Of a DNA stretch of 64,000 nucleotides, positions 30,152 to 58,281 are shown in pieces. The notes beneath the pieces were generated by a model. It was not told the origin of the DNA, searched no databases, and saw only the letters and a program-made list of their open reading frames with translations. Numbering within the stretch: position 1 is the stretch's first letter; every line of letters begins with the position of its first letter. The position numbers and the translations under genes were made by a program. Source of the stretch: a virus (lineage: Duplodnaviria > Heunggongvirae > Uroviricota > Caudoviricetes); the IMG/VR virus record IMGVR_UViG_3300010401_000032, positions 90,145 to 154,144 of that record, one strand, 5' to 3'.

Positions 30152-30823
30152 TTATAGGAATTCTAATTGCATGTAATAGCCGAAATTCGTCTTACGGCCG
30201 GCGGCCGTAGGTGAACCGCTTATAAGTAAATGATAGTCGTGAACGTGTGCTCCGATTGCCTGATCATTTAGACTCATAACCGCACCGGCAGAAGAAATCT
30301 CTGACCAAGCTGCGTCGGCCGAATTTCCAGATGTGTCTCTTAATTGTGCTGCCTTGACTGTGATACCAGTTGCCAAGCTACCAATATTTGGTACACCGGA
30401 ACCAGCATCAAAGTTCACCGCTCTAAAGGTAGCATTCTGTGTTACAACGGCGGTTCCATTAGGCTCCGTGAATCTGCAAAGCAATGTACCGGACTCTCGT
30501 GGTATATTGGCAAATCCACCTGTAAATGGAACCCCAGAGTTTTCCACGCTAGAGGCACCGGTAAATTTGTTGTTGACCATTTGCCCGAGGTTCGCACCTA
30601 GATAATCTGTTCTAAAAGTACGATCCTGGTACTGTCCAACAATAACAGCACTATTCGGAGCACCATTAACTCCGAAGAAGCCCATACGATTAGGGCTATT
30701 TGTGGCACCAATTTCGAAATTGAAAATTTCGAATCTAGTAGTAGCTTGTCCTGCGGCATAAAGAGAGGCAACGGAATTGCCTAATACGCCAGAAGTACCA
30801 AAAAATCTAATACCGCTTACAAT
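30152..30823 (-). CDS. Probable virion structural protein, extended to a likely ATT start
   Basis: The frame stays open upstream of the track ATG (30685) to TAG at 30857-59, with no ATG/GTG/TTG. AGGTG-TTATT-ATT gives MVSGIRFFGTSG...; G/S/T/N-rich composition. Confidence 0.65.
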   Translation of the reverse strand: MVSGIRFFGTSGVLGNSVASLYAAGQATTRFEIFNFEIGATNSPNRMGFFGVNGAPNSAVIVGQYQDRTFRTDYLGANLGQMVNNKFTGASSVENSGVPFTGGFANIPRESGTLLCRFTEPNGTAVVTQNATFRAVNFDAGSGVPNIGSLATGITVKAAQLRDTSGNSADAAWSEISSAGAVMSLNDQAIGAHVHDYHLLISGSPTAAGRKTNFGYYMQLEFL

Positions 30824-30912
30824 AATAACACCTAATTTCTTTCTTTTAAACTCTAACTATCCATATGGAACATTAGGTAAATCAGAACTATGGCAAAAAA
30901 CCAATGCTACTA

Positions 30913-30924
30913 ATAATACACTAA
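30913..30924 (-). promoter_or_regulatory. Candidate late-promoter motif TTAGTGTATTAT (exact)
   Basis: Exact 12-mer overlapping the TAG stop of 30921-33008, about 90 nt upstream of the next start. Confidence 0.55.
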
Positions 30925-33008
30925 TATGGAATAAACACTAGTTCGCGTGCGGGCATTGCTGCCCCAACGCTTGTGTCAATTCTAGCAATAGACTTAACTT
31001 CCCAGTAATTTGTTGATTCTTCAATCCGAATGATATATAAGCTTTTAATGCCAGATTTTACCCAGGCTATTATAGCGTATATACCGTCCCTTAGGTGAGT
31101 TGCCCCAGAAATTTCAATTACATCCATGATTTGGGCAGATGTAGCATGACCTATAAAGGGTGCTCCATTAATATATTTGACCATACCAAATTGTACAGTA
31201 CCACAACTAGGTGCAGAACCGTCGTCTGAAAATGGTTCTGTTCCATCAGTAACAACGTCCATTGGAATAAGTCCACTGCCGATATCGGTGCCGTTTTGCC
31301 CGCCGTAGAAAACATATTGTTTGCCACCAATATTCACTCCTCTATCCTGAATAAGTCCACTAGATACAAGTGGCACATACTTATTCAAATACTTGAAAGT
31401 ACTATCAAATTTCCAATATGGAAAACCACCGGCACCGATATCGTTACCATTGGAAACCCAATATTCATCAGCAATTGGATCATGCCATAAATCAAAAAAG
31501 AATGCACCGTCATTAACTGGAAATTGATTAGTAATATTAGGCTGAGTAACGTCTGATGTACTTGTAATTGCAGCAGATAAATCTAGTATATCGTTATATC
31601 GTCCAAGTCTTAATTGGCCCGAGTTGCTGGCAAACGGTCTTTGTATAGTCGGATGCAATCTATAGATATTATTTACGCTCGGTCTCGTAAGACCAACGAA
31701 CGTAGACCAATTACCGCTATCACTTACCGGAATCGATCCGAACGTAACTTGAGAAGCTATTGGAGTTTGATCAGCATATCTTACCCATAATGATGTAAAT
31801 GTAAATGGAGACAATAGGGCTAGACCAGAAGGATAACCAAAGTTAGATCCGGCGTATGAAGCCTGAGTATTTCTATCTGTCATCCATAGTGTATCATCAA
31901 AAACTTGATATCCTATATTAGAATTTGTGTTTGTAATAATAGAATTAGACGGCCAAGACGCCGCTGGAGTGGGCCAGTAACTAAAGATTCCGGATTCGAT
32001 TGTAGTGAAGGAGAAATTTGCAAATCTATTAATACCCGCTACTCTATAAACACCAGAGCCTTGTGATCGCGGCGTCGAAAATATTCTTGTAGTTTCCGCG
32101 TTGCCACCTAATGAAAGCGATCTAATACTATCCATGAAAAAATCAAAATCATCTGTATTAAATTTGATTCCATGCCCCAATGCTATACTTGTTTGTTCTC
32201 TTAATGCATAGCCATCGAATCTTACTACTCCAGAAAATATAGGGTCGGTTGCATAGAATTCATTCCCTGACAAAAGTTCCGGTTCCCTGCCAGTAAGTGG
32301 CACTAAAGAACCGTCCGTCTTTTGAAAAGATGGAAATATTGGAGCACATAATATCATGAACGTGTCATTAGCATTAGTATCTCCTCTTCGTCCATGGGCA
32401 GTTCTATAATCAGATCTGCTAAAAAATGGTGCCGGATTGAACATGACTTCGCCGAAGTCTATATCGTATAGAACGCCAGAAGATCCTAGTACGTCTGTAA
32501 CGTTGTAGTCGATAATACCCACTTCCGAAGGAAATCTATGGGCATTATGGCCGGTCGTAAAAAATTCTGGAGCAAAATAAAATCCACTCGGACTATCTGG
32601 ATATGCTGACTGAAACCATCCCTTTAAAAAGTCTTCATTAGAATAATCGGAGTCATTTGTATAAAAATTAAATAATGATTCCAATGCACTTCTTGTATCT
32701 TGTATGACATCTATATAGCTAAGAGAAGCGGGGGCTACCTCATTACCTAGAGTAGATCCGTTAGCCTTGGGTTCATATGGACCAGACGGAGCAATGGCCG
32801 GATTGATATAGACAAAAAAGTCTGACAAAATATGGCTGCTAACAAGCCTGCGAAATTTTCTCATTTCAGCGGTAATGATGAACTGTGCCTGCTCCAGTAA
32901 AATACCAGACGGACCTATAGCTGGACGAGCACTATAGGGCTCAGGAACCCTAAAAGATCCCTTACCTATAGCATATTCATATGGGGGTATACCTGATTGT
33001 AAAACCAT
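30921..33008 (-). CDS. Putative tail-tip/virion protein, 695 aa
   Basis: Position in tail module; beta-rich, aromatic/Gly/Ser composition; no family recognised. Confidence 0.7.
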   Translation of the reverse strand: MVLQSGIPPYEYAIGKGSFRVPEPYSARPAIGPSGILLEQAQFIITAEMRKFRRLVSSHILSDFFVYINPAIAPSGPYEPKANGSTLGNEVAPASLSYIDVIQDTRSALESLFNFYTNDSDYSNEDFLKGWFQSAYPDSPSGFYFAPEFFTTGHNAHRFPSEVGIIDYNVTDVLGSSGVLYDIDFGEVMFNPAPFFSRSDYRTAHGRRGDTNANDTFMILCAPIFPSFQKTDGSLVPLTGREPELLSGNEFYATDPIFSGVVRFDGYALREQTSIALGHGIKFNTDDFDFFMDSIRSLSLGGNAETTRIFSTPRSQGSGVYRVAGINRFANFSFTTIESGIFSYWPTPAASWPSNSIITNTNSNIGYQVFDDTLWMTDRNTQASYAGSNFGYPSGLALLSPFTFTSLWVRYADQTPIASQVTFGSIPVSDSGNWSTFVGLTRPSVNNIYRLHPTIQRPFASNSGQLRLGRYNDILDLSAAITSTSDVTQPNITNQFPVNDGAFFFDLWHDPIADEYWVSNGNDIGAGGFPYWKFDSTFKYLNKYVPLVSSGLIQDRGVNIGGKQYVFYGGQNGTDIGSGLIPMDVVTDGTEPFSDDGSAPSCGTVQFGMVKYINGAPFIGHATSAQIMDVIEISGATHLRDGIYAIIAWVKSGIKSLYIIRIEESTNYWEVKSIARIDTSVGAAMPARELVFIPY

Positions 33009-36000
33009 TATGCAAATCTAAAGAGAGCACCCTTGACTATTTCTACGAAGCTTACTGTACTTGTTTGTCCGAATCCACCGCTAGGTACTGTATTAACCGT
33101 TGTCAAAAATCCTCTATCTCCTGATACTGCGAATTCTCTAAATGGCACGGGAATAACATTTGGGTATAATTGTCCGGAAGCTATACTAAATCTGCCGTCG
33201 GCCCCTATACCAAGTTCTTTACATAATGCTACGGCAGTTGGCAGCCCTTGTTCGACAACGCTAATAATTTCAACGGGAGTTACTCCAGCACCAGCTTGTT
33301 GAACTGTGCTTGTAATAAAGATTCTGTCGTTGCTGGCCCCAGGGGATACCGGTGCGTCTCCTTGAACCGCCAAAACAGTTTTATCGCCAACGTTAACAGT
33401 TCCATTGAGAACAGAAACGCCCAAGATGGCACGGTTGACCCCAAGTGTCGCTAGTGTTGTAGGGTCAACAATAGTAACGTCATATTTACTTGAATCAAAT
33501 CCGTTTACTTGGTTAACAAATACGATCGTTCCGTTGCCGAATGGGCGACCTTGAGTGAAGTATCTTAAGATAATATTGCCGTCCGGCAATTCAAAGTCGT
33601 CGGTATGATACATGGCTTCGTCACTAATGTTCAAGAAGCCGTCTATGCAAATTGCTCCGTCAACGAAGTCTGGGTTAGAAGAGTCAAATGCATGTGGTGG
33701 TTTTGTATAACCATGCTGATCGATACCACGATAGCGTTCAGGTTCTTCGGATCCAGGAGCACTGCCTAATGTGAATATATTGTTAACTTCGTTAACAGTT
33801 ACACGAACGGCCTTTTCATCCCTGTCAAAGAATAGAGGCGGGAAGAATGGATCACCTGGTAATAGTGGATCTGCCGGAGGACCAGGATTAGGATCAAGTA
33901 ATGATAGATCTGTAAAATCTATAGGATTCAAAATGCCGTTTAAGTGAGCACGAACACGTTCGCCAAGCGGGGCATCGCGTCCAAACTTCGGGAAGTAAGA
34001 CTGGATCTTATATCTTGTTAAGAATCCATCAATACCAAAGCTAATATTCAGTTCATTAACACCGTGACTGATCTCTCCATATAGTCCTGAAGGACCAATA
34101 TTTTGTTCGGCAAAAGCATCGAATGAAAGTACAGGTAGTCCTACTTGCTGAAAATCTGCATATCTAGAAGAACTGCGAGGAACTATCTTGCCCTCTACTC
34201 GACGAATGGCACGATCCGACATTACTTGTAATGAGGTCTGATTACCCTCGGGAGAGAACGCCCATGGCACGAATTGATCGTCTAGTTGAACGTCTTCGTC
34301 ACGCTCGTAATGTAAGTCTCCCAAAACCCATTGGCTAGGATATGCTTGACCATAGCGGCTACGAGATTCTATTGGAATTGCAACGCCGGAAAGTGAATCA
34401 TACACATTAAGAATAATAGATGGATTAATAATATCTAATAGCCCGGAACCGGCGAGCTTGTTTTGAATATTAATTAATGTTGCTAGCTGGCTAATAACGT
34501 TATCTTCGACAAGTCCGCCTGAGGGTCCTGCATTAACCGGCAATTGACAAAGAACAGTACCTTCCGGATAATCTTCGAATGAATAGAGTTCGTCGCTTCT
34601 AGGATTGATAACTCGATTACCGACTAACGACAGGTCTACCGGTATATAGTGTTCGCCAGATCCGTTTGGATTAAATGGAGGTGCATCTTCGGTCCAATTG
34701 CCGAAGCTGGCAGGACTATCATCGCCTTGCGGGCCATAAATAGTAAATGCCGGAAGCTTGCAGTAGGCTCTTACTCTAAAATCATCTGTCACGAATGGGC
34801 TTACGGGACCCAATAGTTTATTAATTTCATAGTCGTCAACATAAACTCCGCTGCCGCCATTGACAACAACTCCAGAAGAAGACAGTTTATAGCCTTCAAC
34901 CTGATTTTCAATATTTGCCCAGGCCGCGTCAACTAAACGGAATAGACCAGAAGCTTGATTAAATAATAGTCCTTCGGCGACATATGAACGCCCATAGTGT
35001 CTAGACGAGTGATCACGAACTCTATTATAGTATGCGATCGTCCAGTTTTGATCTTCGTCGCGACGATTGTTAATAACACGAATACCGGATGCTTCATTAC
35101 CGCCACCGAGTGCGGAAAGCGGCATGAGTGGGTCTAATCTACTTTGGAAACTAGGATCTTGAGCGGCTATAGATCCTTCGTCTGGTGGTAATCCATATCC
35201 TGTTGGCGTACCACTTGGGTCAGCACTTTGATAGATCTTAAAATAGGTCCACTGTTCAATGCCAGCAAGTGCAAGCTGTAGTTCTTTTTCGGTTGGTTTA
35301 TATGTACGATAGAAGCCGCCAGCATCATAGAAACCAATTGTAAGCTTGGACCATGCCGGATAAAATATTAATTGTATTCCGCTTGCCTGAGTATTAAGGT
35401 CAACAATACCATCCAAGCCAAAAGTATCAATCCCGTCTATGGGGCTTAGAATGTTTGAATTTATAAAGCCCTCTTGGTGGCCGCCGATAACTCTAAATCT
35501 AGTTGGATCGGGAACAACGTCCTGCCCGAAACCAAGCTGAGTTGTTTCATTGAGTCCGCTAGCACTACCGAATTCAGAAACTAAATCCAGAATGTCCGTT
35601 TCTGATATATCGAATACGGCCTTCTTATTGACAAGGTTGATCTTCTGTGCGTCCATATTCCAATACCAGTCGTATCCAGTATCGAATAATACGCGAGTTA
35701 TAACCTCGTCAAATGTATTAAGATTAAATTGGAATCTTAGGGCTTCTGACGTGCCATCAATGTTTTTTTCGATCTGTGCGACCGTAGGCAAATCGGCAAT
35801 AGGGAACGCACATTTGTTTTCATTAAAATGAAGGTCTATAGCCGTTAATATTTGGCTGTATGTTCCGCCGAATTGTAATATACGCTTATATTCTTGTATA
35901 TTAGAATCAATCGTTCCATTAATATCCGTTAGACCATTAACAATTCTAAATGCACGGGCTATAGATATGACTCCACTAGGGGCGTCCTCACTCAAGTCCT

Positions 36001-36382
36001 CCGTGTGTATCTTAACCTTACGCAATAATCTTCGATCGTCTTCAACGGTTACGTTAACAATCGTGCCGCCAGCACTGGTAGTATAGTCTGCGTGAGTTAC
36101 CTTGCCACGTAAGAAGAAGTCGCCAACGAATAATTCTAAGCTATGTCCAATATCAGGAAGTTGACCAGACGCACCATGGAAAGTTCCCGGCATGCCGTCA
36201 TCGCATGGAATCCATTCCATTTGGAATGAGTGCGGAGTAAGATTAAAGCCAAAGGTTGCATTGATAGAAGATAAGAATGCACACAACTGAGAGCCGGGCT
36301 CATTATCATTGAATTGACCAGACGGCCAAGGAATACCATTTAACGGTACGCCTACACCACTAACAATAATTGTATTAGTCAT
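33008..36382 (-). CDS. Putative tail hub / central tail protein, 1124 aa
   Basis: Downstream of the tape measure; GKVTH...TIVNVTVED.R and GYDWYW patterns resemble baseplate-hub-type N-termini (inference). Confidence 0.6.
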   Translation of the reverse strand: MTNTIIVSGVGVPLNGIPWPSGQFNDNEPGSQLCAFLSSINATFGFNLTPHSFQMEWIPCDDGMPGTFHGASGQLPDIGHSLELFVGDFFLRGKVTHADYTTSAGGTIVNVTVEDDRRLLRKVKIHTEDLSEDAPSGVISIARAFRIVNGLTDINGTIDSNIQEYKRILQFGGTYSQILTAIDLHFNENKCAFPIADLPTVAQIEKNIDGTSEALRFQFNLNTFDEVITRVLFDTGYDWYWNMDAQKINLVNKKAVFDISETDILDLVSEFGSASGLNETTQLGFGQDVVPDPTRFRVIGGHQEGFINSNILSPIDGIDTFGLDGIVDLNTQASGIQLIFYPAWSKLTIGFYDAGGFYRTYKPTEKELQLALAGIEQWTYFKIYQSADPSGTPTGYGLPPDEGSIAAQDPSFQSRLDPLMPLSALGGGNEASGIRVINNRRDEDQNWTIAYYNRVRDHSSRHYGRSYVAEGLLFNQASGLFRLVDAAWANIENQVEGYKLSSSGVVVNGGSGVYVDDYEINKLLGPVSPFVTDDFRVRAYCKLPAFTIYGPQGDDSPASFGNWTEDAPPFNPNGSGEHYIPVDLSLVGNRVINPRSDELYSFEDYPEGTVLCQLPVNAGPSGGLVEDNVISQLATLINIQNKLAGSGLLDIINPSIILNVYDSLSGVAIPIESRSRYGQAYPSQWVLGDLHYERDEDVQLDDQFVPWAFSPEGNQTSLQVMSDRAIRRVEGKIVPRSSSRYADFQQVGLPVLSFDAFAEQNIGPSGLYGEISHGVNELNISFGIDGFLTRYKIQSYFPKFGRDAPLGERVRAHLNGILNPIDFTDLSLLDPNPGPPADPLLPGDPFFPPLFFDRDEKAVRVTVNEVNNIFTLGSAPGSEEPERYRGIDQHGYTKPPHAFDSSNPDFVDGAICIDGFLNISDEAMYHTDDFELPDGNIILRYFTQGRPFGNGTIVFVNQVNGFDSSKYDVTIVDPTTLATLGVNRAILGVSVLNGTVNVGDKTVLAVQGDAPVSPGASNDRIFITSTVQQAGAGVTPVEIISVVEQGLPTAVALCKELGIGADGRFSIASGQLYPNVIPVPFREFAVSGDRGFLTTVNTVPSGGFGQTSTVSFVEIVKGALFRFA

Positions 36383-36385
36383 GTT

Positions 36386-39300
36386 TTACGCACCTCCATT
36401 TTGTAGATAATCATTACCAGCTTCCAAGCTATCTGTCCATGTGACGCCACGGGAATCTCTTATAATCCAAATTGGTCTATATGTTCCAGGTCTTGTGTAA
36501 ACGTGGGTCGGATTTGACGATGTGGTTGTCTGACCATCATCAAAGTTGAGTAGTCTAGCCGAGATGCTCACGCCATCGGGTATTGTATTCACCACTGTAG
36601 TAAAGTCTACTGTTAGTGCAGCAGCACCGACACGAGGAACTCCAGAAAGACTAATTATAACTGGATCTATTCCCGACGCAACATTAACAATCCGTGTTGC
36701 GGATCCGTGCATACCATCCGAATCTATAGCTTCAAATCTTACAATATAGAAACCACTAGATGCAAAGTTGTGTTGTATTGGATATAGACTAATGCCACTT
36801 TCAACGCCAGCAACATTAGGAGTGAAGTCACCGAAATTCCATCTTGTTTGTACAATGGTTTTATCTTGTTGCCCAGAAGCAAAACCGACGAAATATTGAT
36901 TGAATGGCGGCACTAATCCACTCACTGTTGCATTAGGAGTTATGATATCAACGAATGGCGGAAGTTCGTTTTGGAAAATTATAATCTTCGCGTCAAAGTC
37001 AGAGGATGTTGTTTGTGCAATTTCAAGCTGTGCGTCGAAATCTTTTGCAGCCATTACCTCTAGCGTATAGCTAGTATCAAATTCAATTCTACCTTGTAAT
37101 GCTCCAATGATAAACCCACCAAGTAGACCGCTACCAATATCTATGGTTAGATTAGCACCAAGAATTAGACCACCGAATAGACCAGAGCCTATCGCTTGAC
37201 CACGAATATAACCAGCAATCATGCCTGAGCATGCCGTAGATCCAACAACGTATCCGCCTAATAATCCTGATGCGACATCCAGACCGCGAATAAATCCACC
37301 GATAGTACCGTCTGCGAAAACCTGTCCAGAAATGTATCCGCCGAACAATCCACTGCACGCCGTACTACCAGTTATAATACCACCGATTATACCAGAGCTT
37401 GTATCAAGACCTTGGGCATAACCACCGATTAAACCAGAACCGGTATCTTGTCCATAAATAAATCCGCCCATGACACCGCTAACGACACTCGCTTCTGCTG
37501 CATCAATTCCATTCAAAGCTACATAACGTACTTCATTATCAGTTAATGCTCTAGAGAAGTAGAAAACGTCAGTAAGAATAGATGCCTGATCGTTGAGTGT
37601 ATTGGTATTAAAATCCCATGGTGCCGAGTTTTGGTGATTTAGGAATGTAATAAGTTTGGCCGCCGAATTAGTAGGAACCCACGGCCCCAATCCAGAAGTA
37701 CTACCGGTGCGAGGGTCAATACCGACCTTAAGATTTTTTCTATCTACTTCTGTTCCATCTACATAACAAATTAATGCCGATGCTACGGGATCGAAAACCC
37801 AACAATAATGTGCCATACCGTCAATACGGGGTGGACGTGGCGTTCCCCATTTATAGACATCGAATCTAGTTTGATCCTCGTAAATACCATCGCCTTCGAA
37901 TGTTCCACATACTATCTGACCAGATTGAGATGTATCAGAGCTATTGTCATAATAGCCATTTCCAGCAGTTGAAAGAACCATCTTCATGTCATTGTTATCG
38001 TCATTAACAATGACCCATCCACGATCTAAATTAATAGTTGTATCGCTAACTGAGTTGCTTCCAAGTATACCATATGATAAAACTACGTCAGCCGTATTAG
38101 CTGTAGCAATATCATTTCTTTTAACTAGTAAAAATCCAACAGAAAATCCAACGTGAGGATTATTAAATGCTACGCCGGAAACAGCAAATGGCGGATAGAA
38201 TGGTGCATTAGTTAGTGTCGCGTCGACGAACGAAATACCACTACATTGTATCAGAAGATCAGAATTAGCTAGTGGCCCCGGAAGAATTTTTAATTGTCTT
38301 AATGCGGTCGCGGTCTGTTGTCCCTGTCCAACGAGAATTCGACCTTGAATAATACCACTAAGATTATGTCCTTTTAACGAAAGGTCACGAATACCGGAGA
38401 AACCATTGGTCATTCCATTAAATCTCCAATAACCTTCTAAATTAGAATCGGAGATTGTCACCTGCGTAGTAGGCATAGAATCGGTATAGCCTTGAATTGT
38501 CGGCTGCAATATACCACTAATTGCTAATGCCTCTACTTCATGTTCTTCAAATATACCACGCATGACGAACATATTACGCATATATATTTCGCCAAGGCCA
38601 CCGTCTCGGGCAATCTGTGTAGCATACGTATTACTTCCAATTTCTCCACCGAAGTTTAATGTCCAGCTTTCTGTCGTAGAGTTGGGAGGTTGAGCACTCC
38701 ACATTTTAGCTGTAGAAGCCGGCACACGTACTGTTTGTACTAGAATTCCATTAATCCATAATTCAATAGCAACTACGGCCTGACCAGTAGTTTCATTAGA
38801 AACATTATATGGAGAATCAAACTTTGAGTGGAAGAGTATCTTAGATGGTACGCCGAATGGAATTCTGCCAGAAACCAATGGCTTAAAGGCAGTGCCAGCG
38901 AAAACATCTTCACGACCCTGAAATACTATTGTCACGCCCGAGCCGGCAGAAGCATCGATTGTTGTTAAGAATGATCGTAGTTCGCCAACGTTCGTCGGTG
39001 ATGCATTACCACCAATACCACCATAAACATGAAGTGTTGAATTAAAATCAAACTTTTCTGAATCGCTTGTAGATCCAAGTAAAGTAATGGGTATTCTTCC
39101 GCTTGGAGTAACTTCATATCCAATAATATACTCACCAAGTATATTTTGAGAAGCAAGGTCGTTTTCCTCATTAACTGGCTTATATCTTTCAACTAAATTA
39201 CCTATTGATGATCTAGCCCCCCCGGCATCCGAAACAACGTTAGTACCAAGAGATCCTCCGCGAACTGTAAATACTCCAGACGTAATACCTAGATTGCCAA

Positions 39301-41311: not shown

Positions 41312-41775
41312 TATAAGGACTCCATAATGATATGATCTCCCGTAAATGGAGATACTCTGTAGCGTTTAATGACGTTGTTGCCACCATCAAGAACATCTAA
41401 ATTAATAAATAGATGATTGGCGTCAATGATCGGCTTCTTGCTTATGAGCCATCCAGGTCTTTGGCCTTCCATATTTAATGGATAATATTCTGTAACAAAG
41501 CAATGGAGATCTGCTTCAGTCCACGCTTCAGAAGACAAAAGCCCCATGTCTTCAAAGTACTTATCTTCTGTACGAAAAGCTCTAAATAGAGAGTTCTCTT
41601 GAGCGAGAGAAAGTATAACGCCTTCGTACGTTGCAACGTCGCTTACGGCAGTGCCGCCAAGACGAAAAATTTCATCGCTGCTCTTCGTGCAGGCGATTTC
41701 TACAGATCGGTCAAAATGCGTGTTAACCGATAAAAGGCCGTTGTTGCCTTCATATTCAAATCTTGCTTTTACCAT
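41311..41775 (-). CDS. Hypothetical protein
   Basis: 154 aa, strong SD (AGGAG), coupled to the LamG gene. Confidence 0.7.
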   Translation of the reverse strand: MVKARFEYEGNNGLLSVNTHFDRSVEIACTKSSDEIFRLGGTAVSDVATYEGVILSLAQENSLFRAFRTEDKYFEDMGLLSSEAWTEADLHCFVTEYYPLNMEGQRPGWLISKKPIIDANHLFINLDVLDGGNNVIKRYRVSPFTGDHIIMESL

Positions 41776-41813
41776 CCTTACTCCTAAGACTAAGCCGAGC
41801 TATGTCTTGAATG

Positions 41814-41825
41814 AAAATACACTAA
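41814..41825 (-). promoter_or_regulatory. Candidate late-promoter motif TTAGTGTATTTT
   Basis: One mismatch to consensus; overlaps the 3' arm of the 41821-41854 hairpin; about 40 nt before ATG 41775. Confidence 0.45.
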
Positions 41826-41854
41826 GGCGGCACTTTTAACGGTGCCGCCTTAGT
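41821..41854 (-). terminator. 13-bp perfect hairpin after the 61-aa gene (terminator or processing site)
   Basis: ACTAAGGCGGCAC-8 nt-GTGCCGCCTTAGT, followed on the minus strand by GTATTTT. Confidence 0.7.
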
Positions 41855-41875
41855 TTAACAATAACACACTAAATA

Positions 41876-42061
41876 TCAGAGCATATTAGTGAATGGATCG
41901 CCAGCGGCGACGCCAACACCAAGGTTATTAACCGCAGTGATTAGGCCACCACGAACAGTCGTAGAAGTCTTACGATCTGAGTGGTATTCTAACTTCGTGC
42001 TTAAGCTCCAAAGTACTGCATTTGCGTTGTTAGTGCTAGATGCTGCATTGAATGTTGCCAT
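41876..42061 (-). CDS. Small probable virion protein, 61 aa
   Basis: AGGAG SD; flanked by a motif copy upstream and a hairpin downstream; A/S/T/N/G-rich. Confidence 0.75.
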   Translation of the reverse strand: MATFNAASSTNNANAVLWSLSTKLEYHSDRKTSTTVRGGLITAVNNLGVGVAAGDPFTNML

Positions 42062-42119
42062 AAGTTTATCTCCTGTACAGGTTACACGTGTGAAATAGAC
42101 TATAAGAGTCTACCATTAA

Positions 42120-42131
42120 ATAATACACTAA
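42120..42131 (-). promoter_or_regulatory. Candidate late-promoter motif TTAGTGTATTAT (exact)
   Basis: Exact 12-mer overlapping the TAG stop of 42128-42778, about 60 nt upstream of ATG 42061. Confidence 0.55.
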
Positions 42132-42960: not shown

Positions 42961-42964
42961 TGTA

Positions 42965-48000: not shown

Positions 48001-50250
48001 ACCGTTGGCTTCGGCAACCGCACCTATTTTTTCTTTTTCAAGATTAATGAAATTCTTTAATACGTCGATATCGCCCAATAGAGCATTACGTAAGTCTTCG
48101 GCATCAACATTAAGATCTTTAAATGGCAAAGAGGTTGCAACCTCGGCCAGTGTATCGTTTATACTCTTATTAAGTTCTTCACCTAATTTCTTGCCCTTTA
48201 GGCCAGAAGCAAGAGCGTCGAATAATTGACCGGCAGCCTCCGCACCTTTATTTCCACCGCCTTGAATGCGGAATTCTACACCGGCAGTATTTCCTTGTTT
48301 CGTAATACGTGCCGTTTCTTCGTCGCGTGCTTTATTATTGTCATCTATAGCGGCGGTAATAGTCTTGAAAGCTTCCGTAACTATTCCAATTGTCCCAGCA
48401 GTAATTGCAGCCTGCTTACCTAACGCGGCAAAGGTTGCAGCTAGTGACACGCCCTCGCTACTAACCTTAAGAATATCTGATCCACCTCTGCCGAAGGCGG
48501 TATTCGTCGCCTCTAGTTTTTGAGCTAGGGTATCAAATAATTTAGGTAAGAATGATCCAATAACAACCAAAGCCCCAAGGCCGGTAACGGTTTCTGTAAA
48601 TGTTTTCTTTAAAGAAGTGAGACTAAGAGTCGATCTAGCAAGTGCGACTGCATTTTCTTTAATAGCTACTGCATGTCCTTGCAATGATTGTGTATCTATA
48701 TTTAATCTTAATCCATGAGCCTGATCAAGGGTAGTATTAGTTGCGACTTGTGCAGAGAATTTACCAACTAGAGAAGCACTATTTGTAACAATAGAACCGA
48801 AACGAGTAAGATCAACTCCTACAGTTGCTATTGCGGCTTGCGTCTTGGTTAATGGCCCAATAAAATCTGCTTGACCAGGAGCAGGAGCATTAGATTTACC
48901 TCCGCCTCCTAGACCACCTCCAGCCAAACCGAAAATTGATTTACCAAGTTGTATACCACCTAAAGCTAGTAAAGGTGCTAAATTACCACCAAGTTCTCCT
49001 ATGACTTTAGTAATACTAGTAAATATGTCTAGTAATTTAGTTGCAATCTGTAGGGCACTCTTAAGAGCGTCTTGCACGCCAGCGTCGCCGAGTGATTTAG
49101 CAAGTTCTTGTCCTTGGGCAATTAATTTACCTAATTGACGATCAAGTTTTTGGTCAGTGATTGTTCGCTTTGAATCAACAGCACCGGCGGCTTGAGAAGC
49201 AGACGCAGCAAGTTCATTGGCACGCTCAACAGAATTTAATGTAGCAATTAACGATTCGAATTGACGAGTACCAGCAATGGCTTTAGCGGCAGAAGCGGCT
49301 TGAGATTCGGTTAAGCCACCGAAAGCTTTCTTAAGATCTGTAAGAACAGCTAGCGTCGGACGTAAAGAACCATCAAGGTTTTCAACAGATACTCCTAATG
49401 CCTCTACAGCACTTCTAGATTCACCGGCGGCGAATATACGGGTTTGTAAAGTCTTGAAGAACGTACCAATTTCAGAACCGGACTTACGGGTTTGTTCTCG
49501 TAATGCAGAAATCAAACCTATGCCCTGATTAATATCTTTGCCGAATTCAGCCAATGAGTTACCACCGGCTCTAAAGGCTTCGGCTACGTCTTGAGCTTCA
49601 ACGGCAGATAAGTCTTCTACCTTTACGAGAGCATCAAGCGATTGTGCTAGCTTATCTCCAGAAAGACCGAATTGCTTATTAACGGACAACAAGAATTCAA
49701 CAGCGTCAGCAGATTTCAAAGTAGAAACTTGCGTGGCGATAATTGCTAGTTGTGCTCTTTTTTGAGCGTCAGCAATTTCTAAACCGGCTTGAACGAAGGT
49801 CTTTGTAACTTCTAAAACTTCTTGGGTTGTAACACCAAGGTCAACGGCAGTTTTTAGTGCAGCCTCGCCGATAGCATCCATTTGACCGGCAAGTTCCTTG
49901 ACGTTGGTTTTAACAATGTCTCGCAAGGCATTATCAAATTCGAATAAGAATTTAACGCCGCCCTGAATGGTCTTATTAAGGGTAGAGAACGTCGGAAGTA
50001 AAATTGCAAACTGGGCCATTCTATTTAAGAATAATCTAGCGACCCGTTCGTTTTGACTAAGTGCGTTGGCCGTCTGATTTAGACGTTGATTAAGACCGGC
50101 GGCATTCGATCCCGCTTGTTTTATATTGACACTAACCTGTTGAAGTTGCTGCGGCATGTTCGCAACAGACTGACTAATCTTACGAAAGATCTGCGGGTTG
50201 ACTTGCACGTCAACCAGTTTCAAAATGCCTTCTAATTGAAACTTATTCAT
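45034..50250 (-). CDS. Tail tape measure protein
   Basis: 1738 aa, helical A/L/Q/E-rich, TP901-like core (FDNALRDI..., TT.EV......F.QAG, D.L..V.D.SA....D.AEA...GG.....G); follows tube and chaperones. Confidence 0.92.
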   Translation of the reverse strand: MNKFQLEGILKLVDVQVNPQIFRKISQSVANMPQQLQQVSVNIKQAGSNAAGLNQRLNQTANALSQNERVARLFLNRMAQFAILLPTFSTLNKTIQGGVKFLFEFDNALRDIVKTNVKELAGQMDAIGEAALKTAVDLGVTTQEVLEVTKTFVQAGLEIADAQKRAQLAIIATQVSTLKSADAVEFLLSVNKQFGLSGDKLAQSLDALVKVEDLSAVEAQDVAEAFRAGGNSLAEFGKDINQGIGLISALREQTRKSGSEIGTFFKTLQTRIFAAGESRSAVEALGVSVENLDGSLRPTLAVLTDLKKAFGGLTESQAASAAKAIAGTRQFESLIATLNSVERANELAASASQAAGAVDSKRTITDQKLDRQLGKLIAQGQELAKSLGDAGVQDALKSALQIATKLLDIFTSITKVIGELGGNLAPLLALGGIQLGKSIFGLAGGGLGGGGKSNAPAPGQADFIGPLTKTQAAIATVGVDLTRFGSIVTNSASLVGKFSAQVATNTTLDQAHGLRLNIDTQSLQGHAVAIKENAVALARSTLSLTSLKKTFTETVTGLGALVVIGSFLPKLFDTLAQKLEATNTAFGRGGSDILKVSSEGVSLAATFAALGKQAAITAGTIGIVTEAFKTITAAIDDNNKARDEETARITKQGNTAGVEFRIQGGGNKGAEAAGQLFDALASGLKGKKLGEELNKSINDTLAEVATSLPFKDLNVDAEDLRNALLGDIDVLKNFINLEKEKIGAVAEANGRTAQFNDLMAGLQEGTLNVGQAFSLLTRTLGAGEVEISDVTGRIKQAFDFKEFTDTQKIIDFADEIRNLGQELEVAKAGPAALKDDLKRLDNEFMLTQRSSQQTQKSLREQLNAAIKNLGNFNFSKGVDFQTLLKNLLEVPQSLDQKSIDQFTHVIRELPKAERDAADEILKIVEQQTKDKLELQKKENDLIAEQQKRAKDMFDEEAAASINAFESTRKFSSELRKFGDAVTTDVLSAFQNISLNDVTDVLKGGSQLSKGIQQIISGAFAEDKPQTKIVKAQTELNAIADESAGKLEVLDLKLKDVNRRLADQANSNSAAALTAEKHGIELEIEKTKQQATVDATEAKIKVLAAEKEAAEKAAELEKRRLELIEKVADASRNFAKELRDSERSFNDFRNQKIADLFKQEADARGELQDKQKEVIESTRGVADAYKSLIQAQLEFGNALAEARVKSNLLGRDIAALTGDVYTFDGQLSSLNNAFTSVLNDANITLQKRIDLERQLGEETLSFLQQARDSIVQAGTGIFGQTGQENQALGRGIAGLQLVADKLGGSFQAFLHLTEGELSDVSKTLLGLPVEFRKQILDALSFLPSTANIGGFTTDQLKQAIGQVGAGVAPEEGLPAIQDLNKQQVEQLQKLQDLSLQDAKLQFAQVVNAKAAVDKAEEQLQASKLLEERAQEGLEKVHDSILVESSILDQANQERRELAAGVVAAQDRNTLLQIEKEAQLFAEQNSTFRDVGENIIRGITSAISAKLSMMEAQTNLNNLVNGHIPNFAGGNLTPKEAAGLLRAGMREKRAMPTGAGLAVANTSEAVIPMRHRGFVPNFDQGNFGSSIAASINAVNQVPAALVAAISASITSALATINSGGGDNTEAFTEIVNQLSSLNNTLDEVKASNSLIQSNTATDNQNPQAKAAAVGNEVRIVLQTNQNNTVTITGLENLRSQLEAAVKNVTSDQVDKQLALQLDQLDSIFTSLRERGLLSSFSQPK

Positions 50251-50900: not shown

Positions 50901-51624
50901 GCTTGACTACCTTTCGTTTCGTTTTCTCATTTTCCTTTTTAATAGCGGCTTCTGCCCTTGTCTTGACTTCAACTAAAACTTTTTCTTCAACCTCTCTATC
51001 GAGCATTCGATCTTCGAGTGTTTTTACATATTTATTTTCTGGGTACTCATTAATAAGACTTTGACGTGCTTCGTCCAAAATCTGAGATTGTAGAGTGATA
51101 ACCTTAGCATAAACCGTAGACTTTGAATTGAGGTCTCGTTCACGAACGTATTCAGAATAATTATCCCAGTAACGTTTGTTAATCGATTTGATTACAGTAC
51201 AGGCGGCCATGATTGATTCCGTCTTGACCATTTCGGCAACGCCTTCGGCAGAATTCATATAAACGGTTTGTTGAACTAGGAATAGTTCCCACATGCGTTT
51301 TCTACCCTCTGCAATATTGCGTGCAGCAGAAAGACACTTATCGTTATTGCCTTCAGCTTCAGCGGAACGAAGTTCAACTTGTGAAACCGCTATTTTGCCA
51401 ACAACCTTCTTGAATTCTTTGTCGTCGTTTTCAGTCCACATATTATGCTCTCTCATAATTTCGCGAAGTTTTTCTCTAGGGAAAACACCTTCGGCGAGAG
51501 CATGACTATAGGCGATACGATATTGACGCTCGCCTTCATTCTCTTCGGCAAGAGTTGGCGTTTTAAGCTCAAATTCACACTCTTGTCCATTGCGGTCTAC
51601 AGCCTTAAATACACGTTCGATCAT
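50860..51624 (-). CDS. Putative tail assembly chaperone-like protein
   Basis: Between tube and TMP; helical and charged; paralogous to 52163-53365. Confidence 0.55.
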   Translation of the reverse strand: MIERVFKAVDRNGQECEFELKTPTLAEENEGERQYRIAYSHALAEGVFPREKLREIMREHNMWTENDDKEFKKVVGKIAVSQVELRSAEAEGNNDKCLSAARNIAEGRKRMWELFLVQQTVYMNSAEGVAEMVKTESIMAACTVIKSINKRYWDNYSEYVRERDLNSKSTVYAKVITLQSQILDEARQSLINEYPENKYVKTLEDRMLDREVEEKVLVEVKTRAEAAIKKENEKTKRKVVKRAKKLGTNISQPS

Positions 51625-52166
51625 ACCTTGCTCCTATATAGTTTAACTACCTCACGCCTCCACTCTTGATACTTGGGCCGAACGCCCGTGTGTAAAGAGT
51701 AGCGATCCATAATTGGAAGTACACAATTTATACAAGATAATGTACCAACAATCTCTAGAATCATATAACCGGTTTCTTCATACAATACGCCAGTGCCAAA
51801 TTCCGTTCGAATAGCCTCTAACACTGATTTCTTGTCTGGACTAGCATAAATCATAATCGATGGCTCGCTATTGAGCGAGAACTCGATTTTCTGCACTGTG
51901 TCCATGAATGTTCTTGTAATAGAGAGAGTATTATCATCATTCATCCGCAACGGACGATATGTGATTTCATAGTCTCTTAATTCATCTCTCTGTGCTCTTA
52001 TAACGTCGTTAAAGGAGGTGCGAATGTCTCCTTTAAATATGTTAGTATCGCGTGAGTTATCCAATTGGGGAAACATCGTTTCAAATTTTTCTAATGTCTT
52101 AATCATTAGATGTTTGATCCGACGATCAAGACTATTGCTAAGTTGCTCTTGTGAGGGGTTTTTCAT
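51621..52166 (-). CDS. Hypothetical protein
   Basis: 181 aa, coupled overlaps on both sides. Confidence 0.7.
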   Translation of the reverse strand: MKNPSQEQLSNSLDRRIKHLMIKTLEKFETMFPQLDNSRDTNIFKGDIRTSFNDVIRAQRDELRDYEITYRPLRMNDDNTLSITRTFMDTVQKIEFSLNSEPSIMIYASPDKKSVLEAIRTEFGTGVLYEETGYMILEIVGTLSCINCVLPIMDRYSLHTGVRPKYQEWRREVVKLYRSKV

Positions 52167-53431: not shown

Positions 53432-54850
53432 TTAGATACCTAGAGTAGAACGCTTAAATGGCGGGCATCCTACGTTGAAGCGACTGTTACCAGTTGCGAA
53501 CACAATAATTCTATGGTTCGGTTGGAAGAAGTCGTGTGAAACGTTGAATACGTTGAAGCTAGAGTAGTTGTAAGTAACAGTCATACTGTCACCGCCAGCT
53601 TCGCCACCACCTGTTTCTGTGCTGACTAGACGATTAGCATCGCCAAGGTCAACCTGCATACCATCGCAAGTACGAATGATAATCGTATTCGATGCTGTCG
53701 TATTGTCATGTCCTCTGCAACAGTCGATTGCAGATGTTGCATCAACCAAGTCACCCTGAGCGGTAACAACTTCAATTGATGTAGTTGCTTCTAGAGGGAA
53801 TGCAGGAGCTTTGAAGTATGGACGCTTAGATCCAAGTTCGAAGATGTCATTTCTAGAAATTGCGAACGATACTGTAATCGTCTGAATGTGTTCAGCGATG
53901 AAGTCAGTATTCGCATTAGCAATCAATTGTTGAGTACCGGCTAGAGTACCAGGGCCTTGAGCACCGAAGCCACCGTTAACGAACGCGGCGTCGATACCTG
54001 AGACTGATGGTGCAATAACGCCAGGGATGTCGTTAGGTAGAATCGAACGACTAATTTCAACTTCTTCACGACGTTGAATACCAGAGCCTACAACGATGAT
54101 ACCGAAACGATCTTCGCCACCGGCAGTTTCAGCGGCACCACCCTCAACTAGTGCTGAGGTATTGCCGTCGTGTCCGAACACGCCAGAAGGAGTTCCTTCG
54201 GGGGCTTCGGGGTTGTTGCCGTCTTGATCATCGGGCCAAACGACGATTGGGTCTGCGGGACTTCCGCCGTTATTACCGGCAGTAACACCAGACACCGCAA
54301 CCATAACGCCCCAGAGCTTGTCATTACCAACTAAAGTAATGTCTTCTGTTACGAAGCCGTCAATTGGGAACGTGTAAGAAACGTTTGATACATACATACC
54401 GGAAGCTGTACAAATAGATTGTGGCTTGCCGGTTGCACGGAATTTTGTATCCGGATAAATTTCTAAAGCAATATCAACACGGTATGCGGCAGTACGAGCA
54501 ACGATGTCGTTTGCACCCGCCGGATTTGTTACCATAAAGAAGAGTGGTTTACTACCGTCAATTGCCTTCGATAGAGATACTTCAATATCGGGCTGACGTT
54601 CTGAGTACTCGTAAAGCTCTACTTGACCAATTTGGAAAACTTGTTCCAAGTTGAAAGTCGTAGTCATACTCATGCTTTGAAGACCACGCGGCACTTCCCA
54701 TAGACCATTAACTTGATCAACACCTGAGGCGAGCGGACCCGTGCTAAACTCTCTCGAATTTGCGGGTGCTACAGCCCCAGTGGGCGGTGCAGCATTATCT
54801 TTAATGGCAATCTGTTCGATTGCCCAGAAGACGCGATTATTATTAGCCAT
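53432..54850 (-). CDS. Major tail (tube) protein
   Basis: Strong SD (GGAGG), own terminator; twin FNLEQVFQIGQ / ISRNDIFELGS motifs typical of tube folds; upstream of chaperones and TMP. Confidence 0.75.
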   Translation of the reverse strand: MANNNRVFWAIEQIAIKDNAAPPTGAVAPANSREFSTGPLASGVDQVNGLWEVPRGLQSMSMTTTFNLEQVFQIGQVELYEYSERQPDIEVSLSKAIDGSKPLFFMVTNPAGANDIVARTAAYRVDIALEIYPDTKFRATGKPQSICTASGMYVSNVSYTFPIDGFVTEDITLVGNDKLWGVMVAVSGVTAGNNGGSPADPIVVWPDDQDGNNPEAPEGTPSGVFGHDGNTSALVEGGAAETAGGEDRFGIIVVGSGIQRREEVEISRSILPNDIPGVIAPSVSGIDAAFVNGGFGAQGPGTLAGTQQLIANANTDFIAEHIQTITVSFAISRNDIFELGSKRPYFKAPAFPLEATTSIEVVTAQGDLVDATSAIDCCRGHDNTTASNTIIIRTCDGMQVDLGDANRLVSTETGGGEAGGDSMTVTYNYSSFNVFNVSHDFFQPNHRIIVFATGNSRFNVGCPPFKRSTLGI

Positions 54851-54921: not shown

Positions 54922-54933
54922 ATAATACACTAA
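54922..54933 (-). promoter_or_regulatory. Candidate late-promoter motif TTAGTGTATTAT (exact)
   Basis: Exact 12-mer directly after the stop of 54934-55959, about 70 nt upstream of the tube gene. Confidence 0.55.
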
Positions 54934-55959
54934 TTATAGTATTGGATTCTCGATTGTAGGTAGCGTAGAAATAGGTCCAAAGATATGACCTAATGGTGTA
55001 GTTGGAGCATTTAAGAATGTTTCTACTGTATAAGTGATTATAGCTCTTTCATATTCTTCGGCGGATTGAAGATTACGCGGATTGGCTGTCATGATATTAG
55101 TAATATATCTAACAGGAATACCAGATCCTATAGTCGTGATTAACTCTCTATTTCTCAGCATTTCCTGATATGGAACGTATTCAGGAGATAGAGTGTTGAG
55201 TATACCAGAGAGTGGCAACGGAGCTATATTAAAATCTATCATAGGAATAGCTTTTCGCCATTGACTCGTAATGATATCAATTATATTGTCTCGTTGTAAA
55301 TCGTCCAATGCCCAAACGTGAAATTTAATCTCATCGGTGATGATAGCACTTCTATTGCCCAATTCATATCCTCTTAGATCTCTGCCGTCAACCTCGATAA
55401 ATACTGCTGGAAATGGTTGAGAGCGACCAGACGGATAAACAAGTTGCATAGATGTGAATGGATTGGTCACGTATTGACTCTCGATATATCCATCGCTGAA
55501 TTGTTGATTGAACTGATGTTCAAAACCAACTCTAACTTCTCTAACCGAGAACTCTCCGTTGACTTTTAATGCCGTGGGCTGCGGGGAATTAAAAATGATT
55601 CTACCGTTAATAAAGTCAATAGTGTGCCCAAACTGAGGATCAGTAGTAGGACGAAAACTGCCCTCAATATATACACCAGAGGCCACAACAGGAGGAGATG
55701 AAACGTTCGTACCATCGAGCGGTACGCCAGATTCATAAACCCAATTTCTAAAAGCCGATTGCCAAACTTGACCATCGCTGACTCCAAATAGTGTATCTTT
55801 AGCGGTTGAATCGGGAAGCAAAAGTGACATATCGCTACCGTCATAGAATGGCTGTCCACTGGCAATATTAGTGAATGCACCTTCTCTAAGAAAATGCATA
55901 TCAATAAAAAGCTTCATATTGAGCTTTAAAAGCGAGCGGAGTTTATATTCTAGACCCAT
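54934..55959 (-). CDS. Putative tail completion/terminator protein
   Basis: Immediately upstream of the tube gene; FPAVFIE....D..GYELG...I.F.V.A pattern resembles tail terminators. Confidence 0.6.
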   Translation of the reverse strand: MGLEYKLRSLLKLNMKLFIDMHFLREGAFTNIASGQPFYDGSDMSLLLPDSTAKDTLFGVSDGQVWQSAFRNWVYESGVPLDGTNVSSPPVVASGVYIEGSFRPTTDPQFGHTIDFINGRIIFNSPQPTALKVNGEFSVREVRVGFEHQFNQQFSDGYIESQYVTNPFTSMQLVYPSGRSQPFPAVFIEVDGRDLRGYELGNRSAIITDEIKFHVWALDDLQRDNIIDIITSQWRKAIPMIDFNIAPLPLSGILNTLSPEYVPYQEMLRNRELITTIGSGIPVRYITNIMTANPRNLQSAEEYERAIITYTVETFLNAPTTPLGHIFGPISTLPTIENPIL

Positions 55960-55961
55960 AA

Positions 55962-57085: not shown

Positions 57086-57425
57086 TTTGAAGTGCTATCT
57101 TAATTTGATCAACTTTTTTCTTATGTGACCAAGTTTTGTCGTATTTTGAAACCATTAAGGGGCCAATGTTATCTATAGTAGATTCAGGCAACCATCTTAT
57201 TTCGTGATAGGTGAATGCTATTTCTGGAAATGGTTTGCCGAACAGTTTAGATAAAATACCTTCTCTATATGTACAATCGACTAATCCGTCTTTACAAGAA
57301 TTATAAACTTGAAATGGAAGATTAGTTGGTTCTTGACCACATTCCTTGCCGTATATTCTATATATAATACCCGTGTCGGCACGAATATCTAATACCCCGC
57401 GAGGCTTTTTAGCAAAGACGAGCAT
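57066..57425 (-). CDS. Hypothetical protein
   Basis: 119 aa, overlaps neighbour. Confidence 0.6.
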   Translation of the reverse strand: MLVFAKKPRGVLDIRADTGIIYRIYGKECGQEPTNLPFQVYNSCKDGLVDCTYREGILSKLFGKPFPEIAFTYHEIRWLPESTIDNIGPLMVSKYDKTWSHKKKVDQIKIALQNVSPTC

Positions 57426-57426
57426 A

Positions 57427-58281
57427 TTAATATATCATCTTTCCAAAGTTGCCGGTCATACGGCTTAAGAAGGCTTTTATAGCCGCTTCTAATTCATTGC
57501 GTCTTTGGGTCGCGTCGAACTTGTGCAGATCGGATCTAAATCCAAGACGCGAAGACGAAATAGTAACTGTCACGCCATCGGCGTTAGTAACGGAAATGCC
57601 ATCTTGTCCGACTGACGTACTGAGACCGTCTATTGCCATCAATCTCTTAAGGGCACTGATTTCGCTTTCAAGTATAATAACTTCCATTTGCATAACAACT
57701 AGATCGCAAATTTCGTCGTTATTTGGAGTGATCGTGCCAGCTTCGGGATCGGCAATAATTGGGAATACTTTAATGCGTGGGCCGCCGAAACCACCAGGAA
57801 TACCCTGAGGACGAGAAGTTGGAGAAAGTCCGAGTCTTTGATTAAGTCTTCGAACTGCCTTAACGAGAACTCTTTGTAAGAATTCATCATTAAATATTAC
57901 GCCTGCCGCATCGCCAATGTCTATACGAACTGCGTCATATATGGCACTCGTTTTATCTTCGGGGGGATTGAATCCTATGCTTACAAGCACGTCTTGCACA
58001 ACGAACGTCTCAGAGGCTTTAACTAGGCTATCTAGTAGCGTAATGATAGTCCAATCAACGTGCCATAAACCTAACTGAAATCCAGCAGGAATAATACCCG
58101 AGCCAACATAATGTCCTAATGCTGGATTTAAAGCAACTCCACTAACGGCCGAGGCGTTAGAGGCGTCGAATAATTCAAATCCAACGTATTTTCCACTGAC
58201 AGATGCACCATTAGCGGATAAGAATATATCCAAAGCAGAAGCATCTTGACCAACAGTTAAAACTTTGCTTTCTCCAGACAT
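57427..58281 (-). CDS. Putative head-tail adaptor with N-terminal Ig-like domain
   Basis: First gene after MCP; N-terminal beta domain (GHY.....IP....G.W...W); C-terminal VR.DIGD....F.D..L...L..A helical adaptor pattern. Confidence 0.55.
   Translation of the reverse strand: MSGESKVLTVGQDASALDIFLSANGASVSGKYVGFELFDASNASAVSGVALNPALGHYVGSGIIPAGFQLGLWHVDWTIITLLDSLVKASETFVVQDVLVSIGFNPPEDKTSAIYDAVRIDIGDAAGVIFNDEFLQRVLVKAVRRLNQRLGLSPTSRPQGIPGGFGGPRIKVFPIIADPEAGTITPNNDEICDLVVMQMEVIILESEISALKRLMAIDGLSTSVGQDGISVTNADGVTVTISSSRLGFRSDLHKFDATQRRNELEAAIKAFLSRMTGNFGKMIY

Follow-up and report, generated by a model that had tools for sequence, protein, structure and literature searches.

Genomic context of the Ser-Gly-rich tail genes

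The stretch of DNA analyzed here (the window, 64,000 bp) covers bases 90145-154144 of IMGVR_UViG_3300010401_000032, an IMG/VR virus record that is complete at 161 kb and has direct terminal repeats. The genes lie on the minus strand throughout the window. They run from capsid genes, through tail genes and the tape measure, to a run of large tail-tip genes (30152-45027), then to replication genes, among them one for a DnaE of 1101 amino acids (aa), and then to a sigma factor and an 18-kb island of glycosylation genes (270-18773). Our subject is the dipeptide Ser-Gly (SG), which is in excess in the outer tail proteins of this phage, and the possibility that its serines are acceptors for the phage's own glycosyltransferases (GTs). 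The excess is confined to the outer tail proteins; the tape measure, the capsid protein, and the non-virion proteins are without it. The SG-bearing genes and the two virion contrasts are as follows.

30152-30823, minus: tail-tip protein, 223 aa, ATT start; 7 SG
30921-33008, minus: tail-tip or fibre protein, 695 aa; 16 SG vs. 6.5 expected (shuffle p = 0.0005)
33008-36382, minus: tail-tip protein, 1124 aa; 19 SG vs. 8.4 expected
36386-41311, minus: adhesin with LamG/ConA-like and PKD domains, 1641 aa; 38 SG vs. 18.9 expected
37112-37480, minus: nine 14-aa repeats within the 1641-aa protein (residues about 1278-1400), with SG in register in each
42128-42778, minus: tail protein, 216 aa, a paralogue of the 185-aa protein; 6 SG vs. 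1.9 expected
42965-43522, minus: tail protein, 185 aa; 5 SG vs. 1.7 expected
43522-45027, minus: protein adjoining the tape measure, 501 aa, distal-tail/tube-like fold; 11 SG vs. 3.6 expected
45034-50250, minus: tape measure, 1738 aa, internal, a negative contrast; 5 SG vs. 8.7 expected
53432-54850, minus: tail protein, 472 aa; 6 SG vs. 3.7 expected, five of them followed by Ile, Leu, or Val
54934-55959, minus: tail protein, 341 aa; 6 SG vs. 1.8 expected
57427-58281, minus: virion protein, 284 aa; 4 SG, all within residues 1-61
58380-59417, minus: major capsid protein, a negative contrast; no SG

Excess of Ser-Gly over expectation

An earlier note on this DNA had counted SG by hand and proposed it as an O-glycosylation sequon. 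Our recount reproduced its SG counts for the 1641-, 1124-, 695-, 501-, 216-, and 341-aa proteins and the tube protein, as well as for the tape measure, the major capsid protein, and DnaE (3 SG). For statistics we pooled ten tail and tail-tip proteins (5636 aa) and used the other 47 proteins of the window as the contrast set. In the pooled tail set SG occurs 116 times vs. 51.1 expected (2.27x, z 9.1), and the second most enriched dipeptide reaches a z of only 2.9. The reverse dipeptide Gly-Ser (GS) stands at 1.14x, Asn-Gly (NG) at 1.09x, and Asp-Gly (DG) at 1.20x, while Thr-Gly (TG) is depleted (0.62x). In the contrast set SG is at 0.81x. The enrichment also appears when each protein is compared with its own shuffled sequences, with p ≤ 0.001 for the 1641-, 1124-, 695-, and 501-aa proteins and p between 0.006 and 0.03 for the smaller tail proteins. 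The ratio of SG to GS is 38/17 in the 1641-aa protein, where 22 of the 38 SG are followed by Ile, Leu, or Val, and 19/8 in the 1124-aa protein. The earlier note had argued that composition alone does not account for this asymmetry, and the pooled values agree with it.

Three simple causes were considered and rejected. All six Ser codons (TCT, AGC, AGT, TCC, TCA, TCG) are used at SG sites, so the signal acts at the protein level and a nucleotide-level cause is ruled out. Internal repeats are not the sole cause, since the 1641-aa protein without its nine-copy repeat still has 29 SG vs. 15.3 expected. Common descent of the carriers is ruled out as well; the only similarity detectable among them is that between the 216- and 185-aa proteins.

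The SG sites have a preferred context. The residue before SG is Pro, Ala, Gly, or Val; the residue after it is Val, Ile, or Leu at 67 of the 116 sites, and Tyr, Leu, Pro, Ile, or Phe is favoured at the second position after it. The resulting four-residue form, [PAGV]SG[VIL], was found 42 times in the tail set vs. 3.3 expected (about 12x chance) and three times in the rest of the window vs. 3.0 expected. It is common to at least eight proteins that have no detectable similarity to one another apart from the single paralogue pair, and the folds among its carriers include the tube/distal tail (Dit)-like fold and the lectin-like jelly roll. From -8 to +9 around SG, no position is enriched in acidic residues.

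Two of the smaller genes call for comment. The start codon of the 223-aa gene (30821-30823) is ATT, and the same codon is ATG in all orthologues. The reading frame is open upstream of the first ATG, and the orthologues start MVSGIRFF. Either the ATT serves as a rare start codon or this codon changed recently. The orthologues carry 4-9 SG vs. about 2-3 expected. The 223-aa SG-bearing protein that the earlier note had listed is confirmed. The 284-aa protein has a short stretch similar to the SG repeat of the 1641-aa protein.

A further SG-rich, fibre-like module lies outside the window at genome positions 79563-81943 (L089:3564-5944, minus strand). It consists of genes for 434, 213, and 136 aa, the first of which encodes 12 SG vs. 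6.3 expected. The module has a weak match to the BclA C-terminal domain and is flanked by nucleotide-metabolism genes (ThyX, ribonucleotide reductase).

Ser-Gly in other tailed phages

In tail, baseplate, and fibre proteins of phages T5, lambda, T4, and S-CBS4, SG occurs at 1.04-1.48x, and the four-residue motif has a frequency of 0.34-1.27 per 1000 aa in their tail proteins vs. 7.45 here. A general property of tail proteins is ruled out against these four phages. The combined density of Ser, Thr, Asn, or Asp followed by Gly ([STND]-Gly) is ordinary, at 3.9 per 100 aa here vs. 2.65-4.0 in the control phages, and the share of Ser among these pairs is 53% vs. 27-37%. Thus, polar-Gly turn positions are normal in number, and the oddity is that Ser fills them.

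One reading of this Ser share is chemical. Asn-Gly and Asp-Gly are labile through deamidation and isomerisation, and long-lived virions might avoid them at exposed turns and use Ser-Gly in their place. The raised Ser share at an ordinary total density is what such a preference for durable turns would produce. However, NG (1.09x) and DG (1.20x) are not depleted in the tail set, the Pro/Ala and Val/Ile/Leu flanks and the depletion of TG are left unexplained, and the control phages also persist outside cells without the pattern. We consider this explanation highly unlikely.

Conservation of the sites in relatives

We found 38 related IMG/VR loci for the 1124-aa protein (42-76% identity), each with 13-22 SG, and all relatives of this set show the same SG excess in the same proteins. 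Means in the orthologues of the 472-aa protein are 6.1 SG vs. 3.8 expected, and the 18 orthologues of the 341-aa protein have 5-7 SG vs. 1.6 expected. The contrast proteins behave differently. Orthologues of the tape measure are depleted (mean 6.2 vs. 10.7 expected, 0.58x), and those of the capsid protein (n = 17) are not enriched (mean 0.8 vs. 1.3 expected).

Alignments of seven tail-tip proteins (23-32 sequences each) show that SG is their most conserved dipeptide, kept in 77% of comparisons vs. 32% for all dipeptides and 32% for GS. Retention of the sites is 84% in the 1641-aa protein (vs. 25% for all dipeptides), 55% in the 695-aa protein (vs. 14%; 22 orthologues), 85% in the 216-aa protein, and 87% in the 185-aa protein; in the 501-aa protein 10 of the 11 sites are invariant or nearly so across 21 sequences. 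The Ser of SG is conserved at 79% vs. 38% for other Ser, which places it above Trp. It is replaced by Thr in 2.7% of cases, by Asp in 2.5%, by Asn in 1.6%, and by Ala in about 2-3%. Conservation rises above background (0.52) only at the Ser (0.79) and the Gly (0.86), and the flanks are at 0.42-0.52. About 75 alignment columns, each occupied at 80% or more, account for the excess, compared with five such columns for GS, and both Ser codon families are used in 24 of the 75. Judged from these alignments, selection appears to act on the Ser itself.

Beyond the near relatives, a profile search with the 501-aa protein returned more than 1000 homologues, all uncultured. As a set this superfamily has SG at 1.85x, and its members range from 0 to 17 SG. 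Sites 253 and 209 are widely common to the superfamily (at site 253, Ser in 78 and Gly in 85 of about 125 distant homologues), whereas sites 62, 105, 320, and 333 are particular to the near clade. An IMG/VR scan based on the alignment of the 501-aa protein led back to the near clade. Searches by tblastn for cultured relatives, made with the capsid and 501-aa proteins and with a distant homologue, gave no match, and neither did a PHROGs search with the tail-tip proteins.

Predicted structure at the sites

Structure models were available for the 501-aa protein and for residues 1-330 of the 1641-aa protein. The 501-aa model is of moderate confidence (predicted local distance difference test, pLDDT, 71) and consists of repeated sheet-plus-helix units; Foldseek gave weak matches to tail tube and distal tail proteins, none at E ≤ 0.001. 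The AlphaFold model of residues 1-330 (pLDDT 79.5, predicted template modelling score, pTM, 0.85) matches lectin-like jelly rolls. The two models hold 19 SG sites. The Ser lies in coil at 13 of the 19, in a strand at four, and in a predicted helix at two. The coil serines are often 0-3 residues ahead of a strand, and several of the 19 sites are in long low-confidence loops. Since many sites are fixed, ancient positions at strand-loop boundaries and some are inside strands or a predicted helix, part of the pattern may be structural.

In its full form this alternative is a lineage-specific structural device, in which Pro-Ser-Gly makes a tight turn, e.g., of type I with a Gly bulge, between the end of a loop and the first residues of a beta-strand. 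The lineage would have settled on Ser as the polar residue of this turn, and the GT island would serve something else. In the type I turn with a G1 bulge of beta-hairpins, positions i+1, i+2, and i+3 are taken by Pro, a small polar residue, and Gly, and a strand follows; most of the mapped sites are likewise at loop-strand boundaries. The sites are fixed (75 columns at 80% occupancy or more), the residues after SG (Val, Ile, or Leu, then Tyr, Leu, Pro, Ile, or Phe) are typical strand starts, some sites such as 253 are common to the whole Dit-like superfamily, and the total [STND]-Gly density is ordinary. Fixed positions, the fit to turn propensities, the in-strand sites, and the lack of an island-less control all speak for a pattern that is, at least in part, structural in origin. 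On the other hand, Asn and Asp are no less favoured than Ser by turn propensities at the position ahead of Gly, and yet the tail set has NG and DG near the expected level and too little TG. In the general G1-bulge turn Asp, Asn, Ser, and Thr are interchangeable; here Ser is almost exclusive, is kept at 79%, and is almost never swapped for Thr, Asn, or Asp. Eight unrelated folds share the pattern, whereas the phage's own non-virion proteins and the four sets of control tails do not, and the contexts are mixed, including the long low-confidence loops. We regard a purely structural device as quite possible, if somewhat doubtful.

A trans-acting reader of Ser-Gly would be the economical explanation, because at least eight unrelated proteins and folds carry one four-residue pattern in mixed secondary-structure contexts. 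The Ser specificity, the pattern common to unrelated folds, the restriction to the outer tail, and the constant company of GTs described below are all in favour of such a reader, and the phage GTs would be the obvious candidates.

The glycosylation island

The earlier note had pointed to a GT island in this genome, and Pfam matches bear it out: the phage encodes a large soluble GT array together with gmd/fcl and methyltransferases.

270-18773, minus: glycosylation island with gmd, an fcl-like epimerase, four methyltransferases, and about eleven GTs (GT2, GT4, CgeB-like)
16971-18773, minus: 600-aa GT4 at the island head, with a Cys4 insert (C302, C305, C330, C333) and a C-terminal DUF4214

No membrane-spanning segment was found in the island proteins (no 19-residue hydrophobic segment above 1.4), and all are soluble. 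Also embedded in the island are a gene of the IMP dehydrogenase/GMP reductase family (8695-9720) and a small HAD/5′-nucleotidase-like gene (10536-10904).

The four Cys of the 600-aa GT4 are directly before the donor-binding motif. They do not vary among 20 homologues, which reach down to 28% identity and include two distant lineages. The Cys4 insert has a weak likeness to the TFIIS zinc ribbon. Against PDB sequences the nearest matches of the GT4 profile are GT4 enzymes (BshA-like, TarM, PimB, MshA), not TibC, and there is a weak match to the PBCV-1 GT B736L (E 0.05). A single-protein pattern scan for the GT4 gave no match. Among cultured phages, tblastn found cyanophage GTs only, at 21-23% identity over most or part of the protein and 46% over one 50-residue stretch. 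In one relative the orthologue of this gene (G007:C1:122112-126221) is split exactly at the conserved donor-binding motif. The insert, about 350 residues long, starts with Cys, ends with His-Asn before the next Cys, and resembles an intein with a homing endonuclease. In the tail gene row of the window, a 181-aa open reading frame (ORF; 51621-52166) has a weak LAGLIDADG endonuclease match.

What the GTs might act on can be narrowed by what else the genome encodes. Neither a phosphoglycosyl transferase (PF02397, PF00953) nor a ThyA-type hydroxymethylase was found in the complete genome, in which thymidylate is made with ThyX, and no convincing TET/JBP was found there. There is a very weak TET/JBP-like match outside the window (genome 4584-4769, E 0.01), where the open frame has an in-frame TAG. 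With no lipid-carrier initiator and no hydroxymethyl-base enzyme, a phage-made lipid-linked or hydroxymethyl-base acceptor is not evident, and a cytoplasmic protein would then be the simplest acceptor for the GTs. No heptose-synthesis family turned up in general Pfam scans of the window genes, among which no search aimed at such families was made.

A Ser-Gly reader could also have another chemistry, such as phosphorylation, acylation, some other modification of Ser, or recognition by an assembly factor, with the GT island unrelated to it. The sequence data point to a reader of Ser-Gly, whatever its chemistry. However, Pfam scans of the window showed no candidate kinase, acyltransferase, or similar enzyme, and the GT island is the only large conserved enzyme set. 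We find such an activity improbable.

Co-occurrence of the motif and the glycosyltransferases

Matches to GT1 and GT2 were found in 20 of 20 related records, and all of these relatives have the SG excess. The island is present in each relative tested, together with its GT4 of four invariant Cys. A distant SG-poor lineage in IMG/VR has its Dit-like and hub proteins at SG expectation, with SG-rich fibres (54 vs. 18.5 and 36 vs. 14.7 expected). The two longer contigs of that lineage encode GT1 and GT2 enzymes along with a Cys4 GT4 homologue, in a smaller GT set. Among cultured phages, Synechococcus phage S-EIVl (KJ410740) encodes a distant homologue of the Cys4 GT4 (21% identity) and several SG-rich ORFs (14 vs. 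3.7 and 14 vs. 6.6 expected), without the four-residue motif or the preference for Val, Ile, or Leu after Gly. The cyanophage S-CBS4, which also has a distantly related GT, shows almost no SG excess. The motif and the GTs occur together in every relative examined, and co-occurrence therefore cannot separate the explanations.

A further weak GT2-like gene, outside the window (L090:5100-5909, genome about 159.2-160.1 kb), is near the large terminase and adjoins a gene for an ERCC4-type nuclease. At the corresponding position, about 10 kb upstream of the capsid gene, GT2 and GT1-like matches were found in relatives.

Comparison with known glycosylation systems

The earlier note compared the motif with the xylosylation of animal proteoglycans, whose sequon is Ser-Gly with acidic flanks, often as Gly-Ser-Gly. 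This analogy did not hold, because the flanks here (Pro, Ala, Gly, or Val before and Val, Ile, or Leu after) are not acidic. The O-glycosylation sequon of Bacteroidota is D-(S/T)-(A/I/L/V/M/T), with transfer in the periplasm. It is ruled out for the phage motif, which has no enrichment of Asp before Ser, has Gly fixed after Ser, and avoids Thr.

Autotransporter heptosylation, by TibC and AAH on TibA and AIDA-I, is the closest working analogy and a better precedent than xylosylation. TibC heptosylates TibA at Ser313 (NSGG) and Ser322 (VSGT), using Ser and not Thr, and a Cys4 finger of TibC helps to recognise the beta-helical substrate (PMC4358343). TibC and AAH are soluble cytoplasmic GT-B enzymes that hyperglycosylate a beta-rich surface adhesin at many serines, and the Cys4 metal finger is inserted in the catalytic domain. 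The candidate phage enzyme is likewise a soluble GT; its four Cys, directly before the donor-binding motif, may mark the same insertion point or may be an analogy only. As in TibA, the phage proteins favour Ser over Thr in a Ser-Gly context and are beta-rich, a likeness at the sequence level (SG 2.27x, TG 0.62x). The recognition site of Aah is described as a short strand, an acceptor loop, and a short strand (Charbonneau et al., 2012, as cited in PMC5000012). The autotransporter substrates have short solenoid repeats with Ser in register, as do the 14-aa repeats of the 1641-aa protein; these appear solenoid-like, and their layout may be comparable to the 19-aa repeats of AIDA-I and TibA. Unlike TibC, the phage enzyme is of the GT4 type, outside the heptosyltransferase family, and the island GTs are GT2, GT4, and CgeB-like. 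The donor genes present in the phage are gmd/fcl, whereas the donor of the bacterial autotransporter heptosyltransferase (BAHT) system is ADP-heptose; the candidate substrates of the phage are many unrelated virion proteins, where BAHT has one partner adhesin. The ten or so remaining GTs and the four methyltransferases point to an oligosaccharide in place of single heptoses.

Phages are also known to glycosylate themselves. The GTs of Che8, Corndog, and Myrna are summarised as placing O-glycans, in the cytoplasm, on the phages' own capsid and tail tube subunits at their C-termini (Freeman et al., 2023, summarised in PMC12619734). The phage described here is like these actinobacteriophages in having its own GTs, which are conserved; the motif suggests a candidate acceptor for them. 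It differs from them, with their few GTs and C-terminal sites, in that SG is absent from its capsid protein, and its many candidate sites are internal and distributed among tail-tip, fibre, and tail proteins. In the chlorovirus PBCV-1, virus-encoded soluble GTs, a GDP-mannose dehydratase, an epimerase/reductase, and methylated sugars build the virion glycan. That glycan is N-linked at atypical sites of the capsid protein of a eukaryotic virus, unlike the candidate Ser on phage tail proteins. To our knowledge, virion glycosylation has been reported only for a few actinobacteriophages, at protein C-termini, and we know of no sequon for any phage. Our literature search found no description of a Ser-Gly sequon in a phage.

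A possible O-glycosylation code

The earlier note's proposal that this genome encodes both writers and sequon-tagged substrates stands in part. The SG excess is not compositional, it is found in the outer tail only, and a GT set is encoded; the parallel to xylosylation fell away. We regard O-glycosylation of the candidate SG serines as the best single explanation, which we hold at somewhat less than even confidence, and we infer the modification itself from sequence. The O-glycan acceptor would be the Ser of (Pro/Ala/Gly/Val)-Ser-Gly-(Val/Ile/Leu), in most cases where a loop ends and a beta-strand follows, in outward-facing tail, tail-tip, and fibre proteins. The writers would be the soluble GTs of the phage itself, with transfer in the cytoplasm of the infected cell. 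The Cys4 GT4 with its DUF4214 tail is the likeliest candidate for the first, protein-recognising enzyme. The remaining GTs, GDP-fucose synthesis, and the methyltransferases could then extend and cap the glycan to give a sugar-coated tail. Probably only an exposed subset of the SG sites would be used.

Several points weigh against O-glycosylation of these serines. Six of the 19 mapped sites are within predicted strands or helix and would hardly be reachable by a transferase acting on the folded protein. The excess occupies about 75 fixed, ancient columns, as structural residues would, and not shifting sites. Several of the motif Gly look conserved with the fold in the LamG or Dit-like superfamily, and SG is already at 1.85x in the superfamily of the 501-aa protein. 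Pro-Ser-Gly is also what a type I turn with a following Gly is known to prefer. The 20 related records and the distant lineage include no relative that has the motif without the island, or the reverse. Finally, the GTs could serve another acceptor, e.g., precursors of the host envelope.

The most far-reaching form of the O-glycosylation reading is a large uncultured clade of aquatic siphophages with its own code, in which (P/A)-S-G-(V/I/L) is present in every outward-facing tail protein and is read by a conserved zinc-finger GT4. Roughly ten further soluble transferases, GDP-fucose synthesis, and the methyltransferases could extend the glycan, and the coat could mask the virion or tune adsorption. 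We consider this complete scheme possible, albeit unlikely.

If Ser-Gly is only a turn motif, it would be an unusually clean, lineage-wide, and Ser-specific structural habit, and a warning against taking a dipeptide excess for a sequon. If it is an acceptor site, it would provide a sequence rule that predicts, by protein and by residue, where an uncultured phage is sugar-coated. It would also explain the big GT islands without lipid-carrier or DNA-modification genes in many large aquatic phages, and one motif with one soluble enzyme would make a compact, Ser-specific tagging system.

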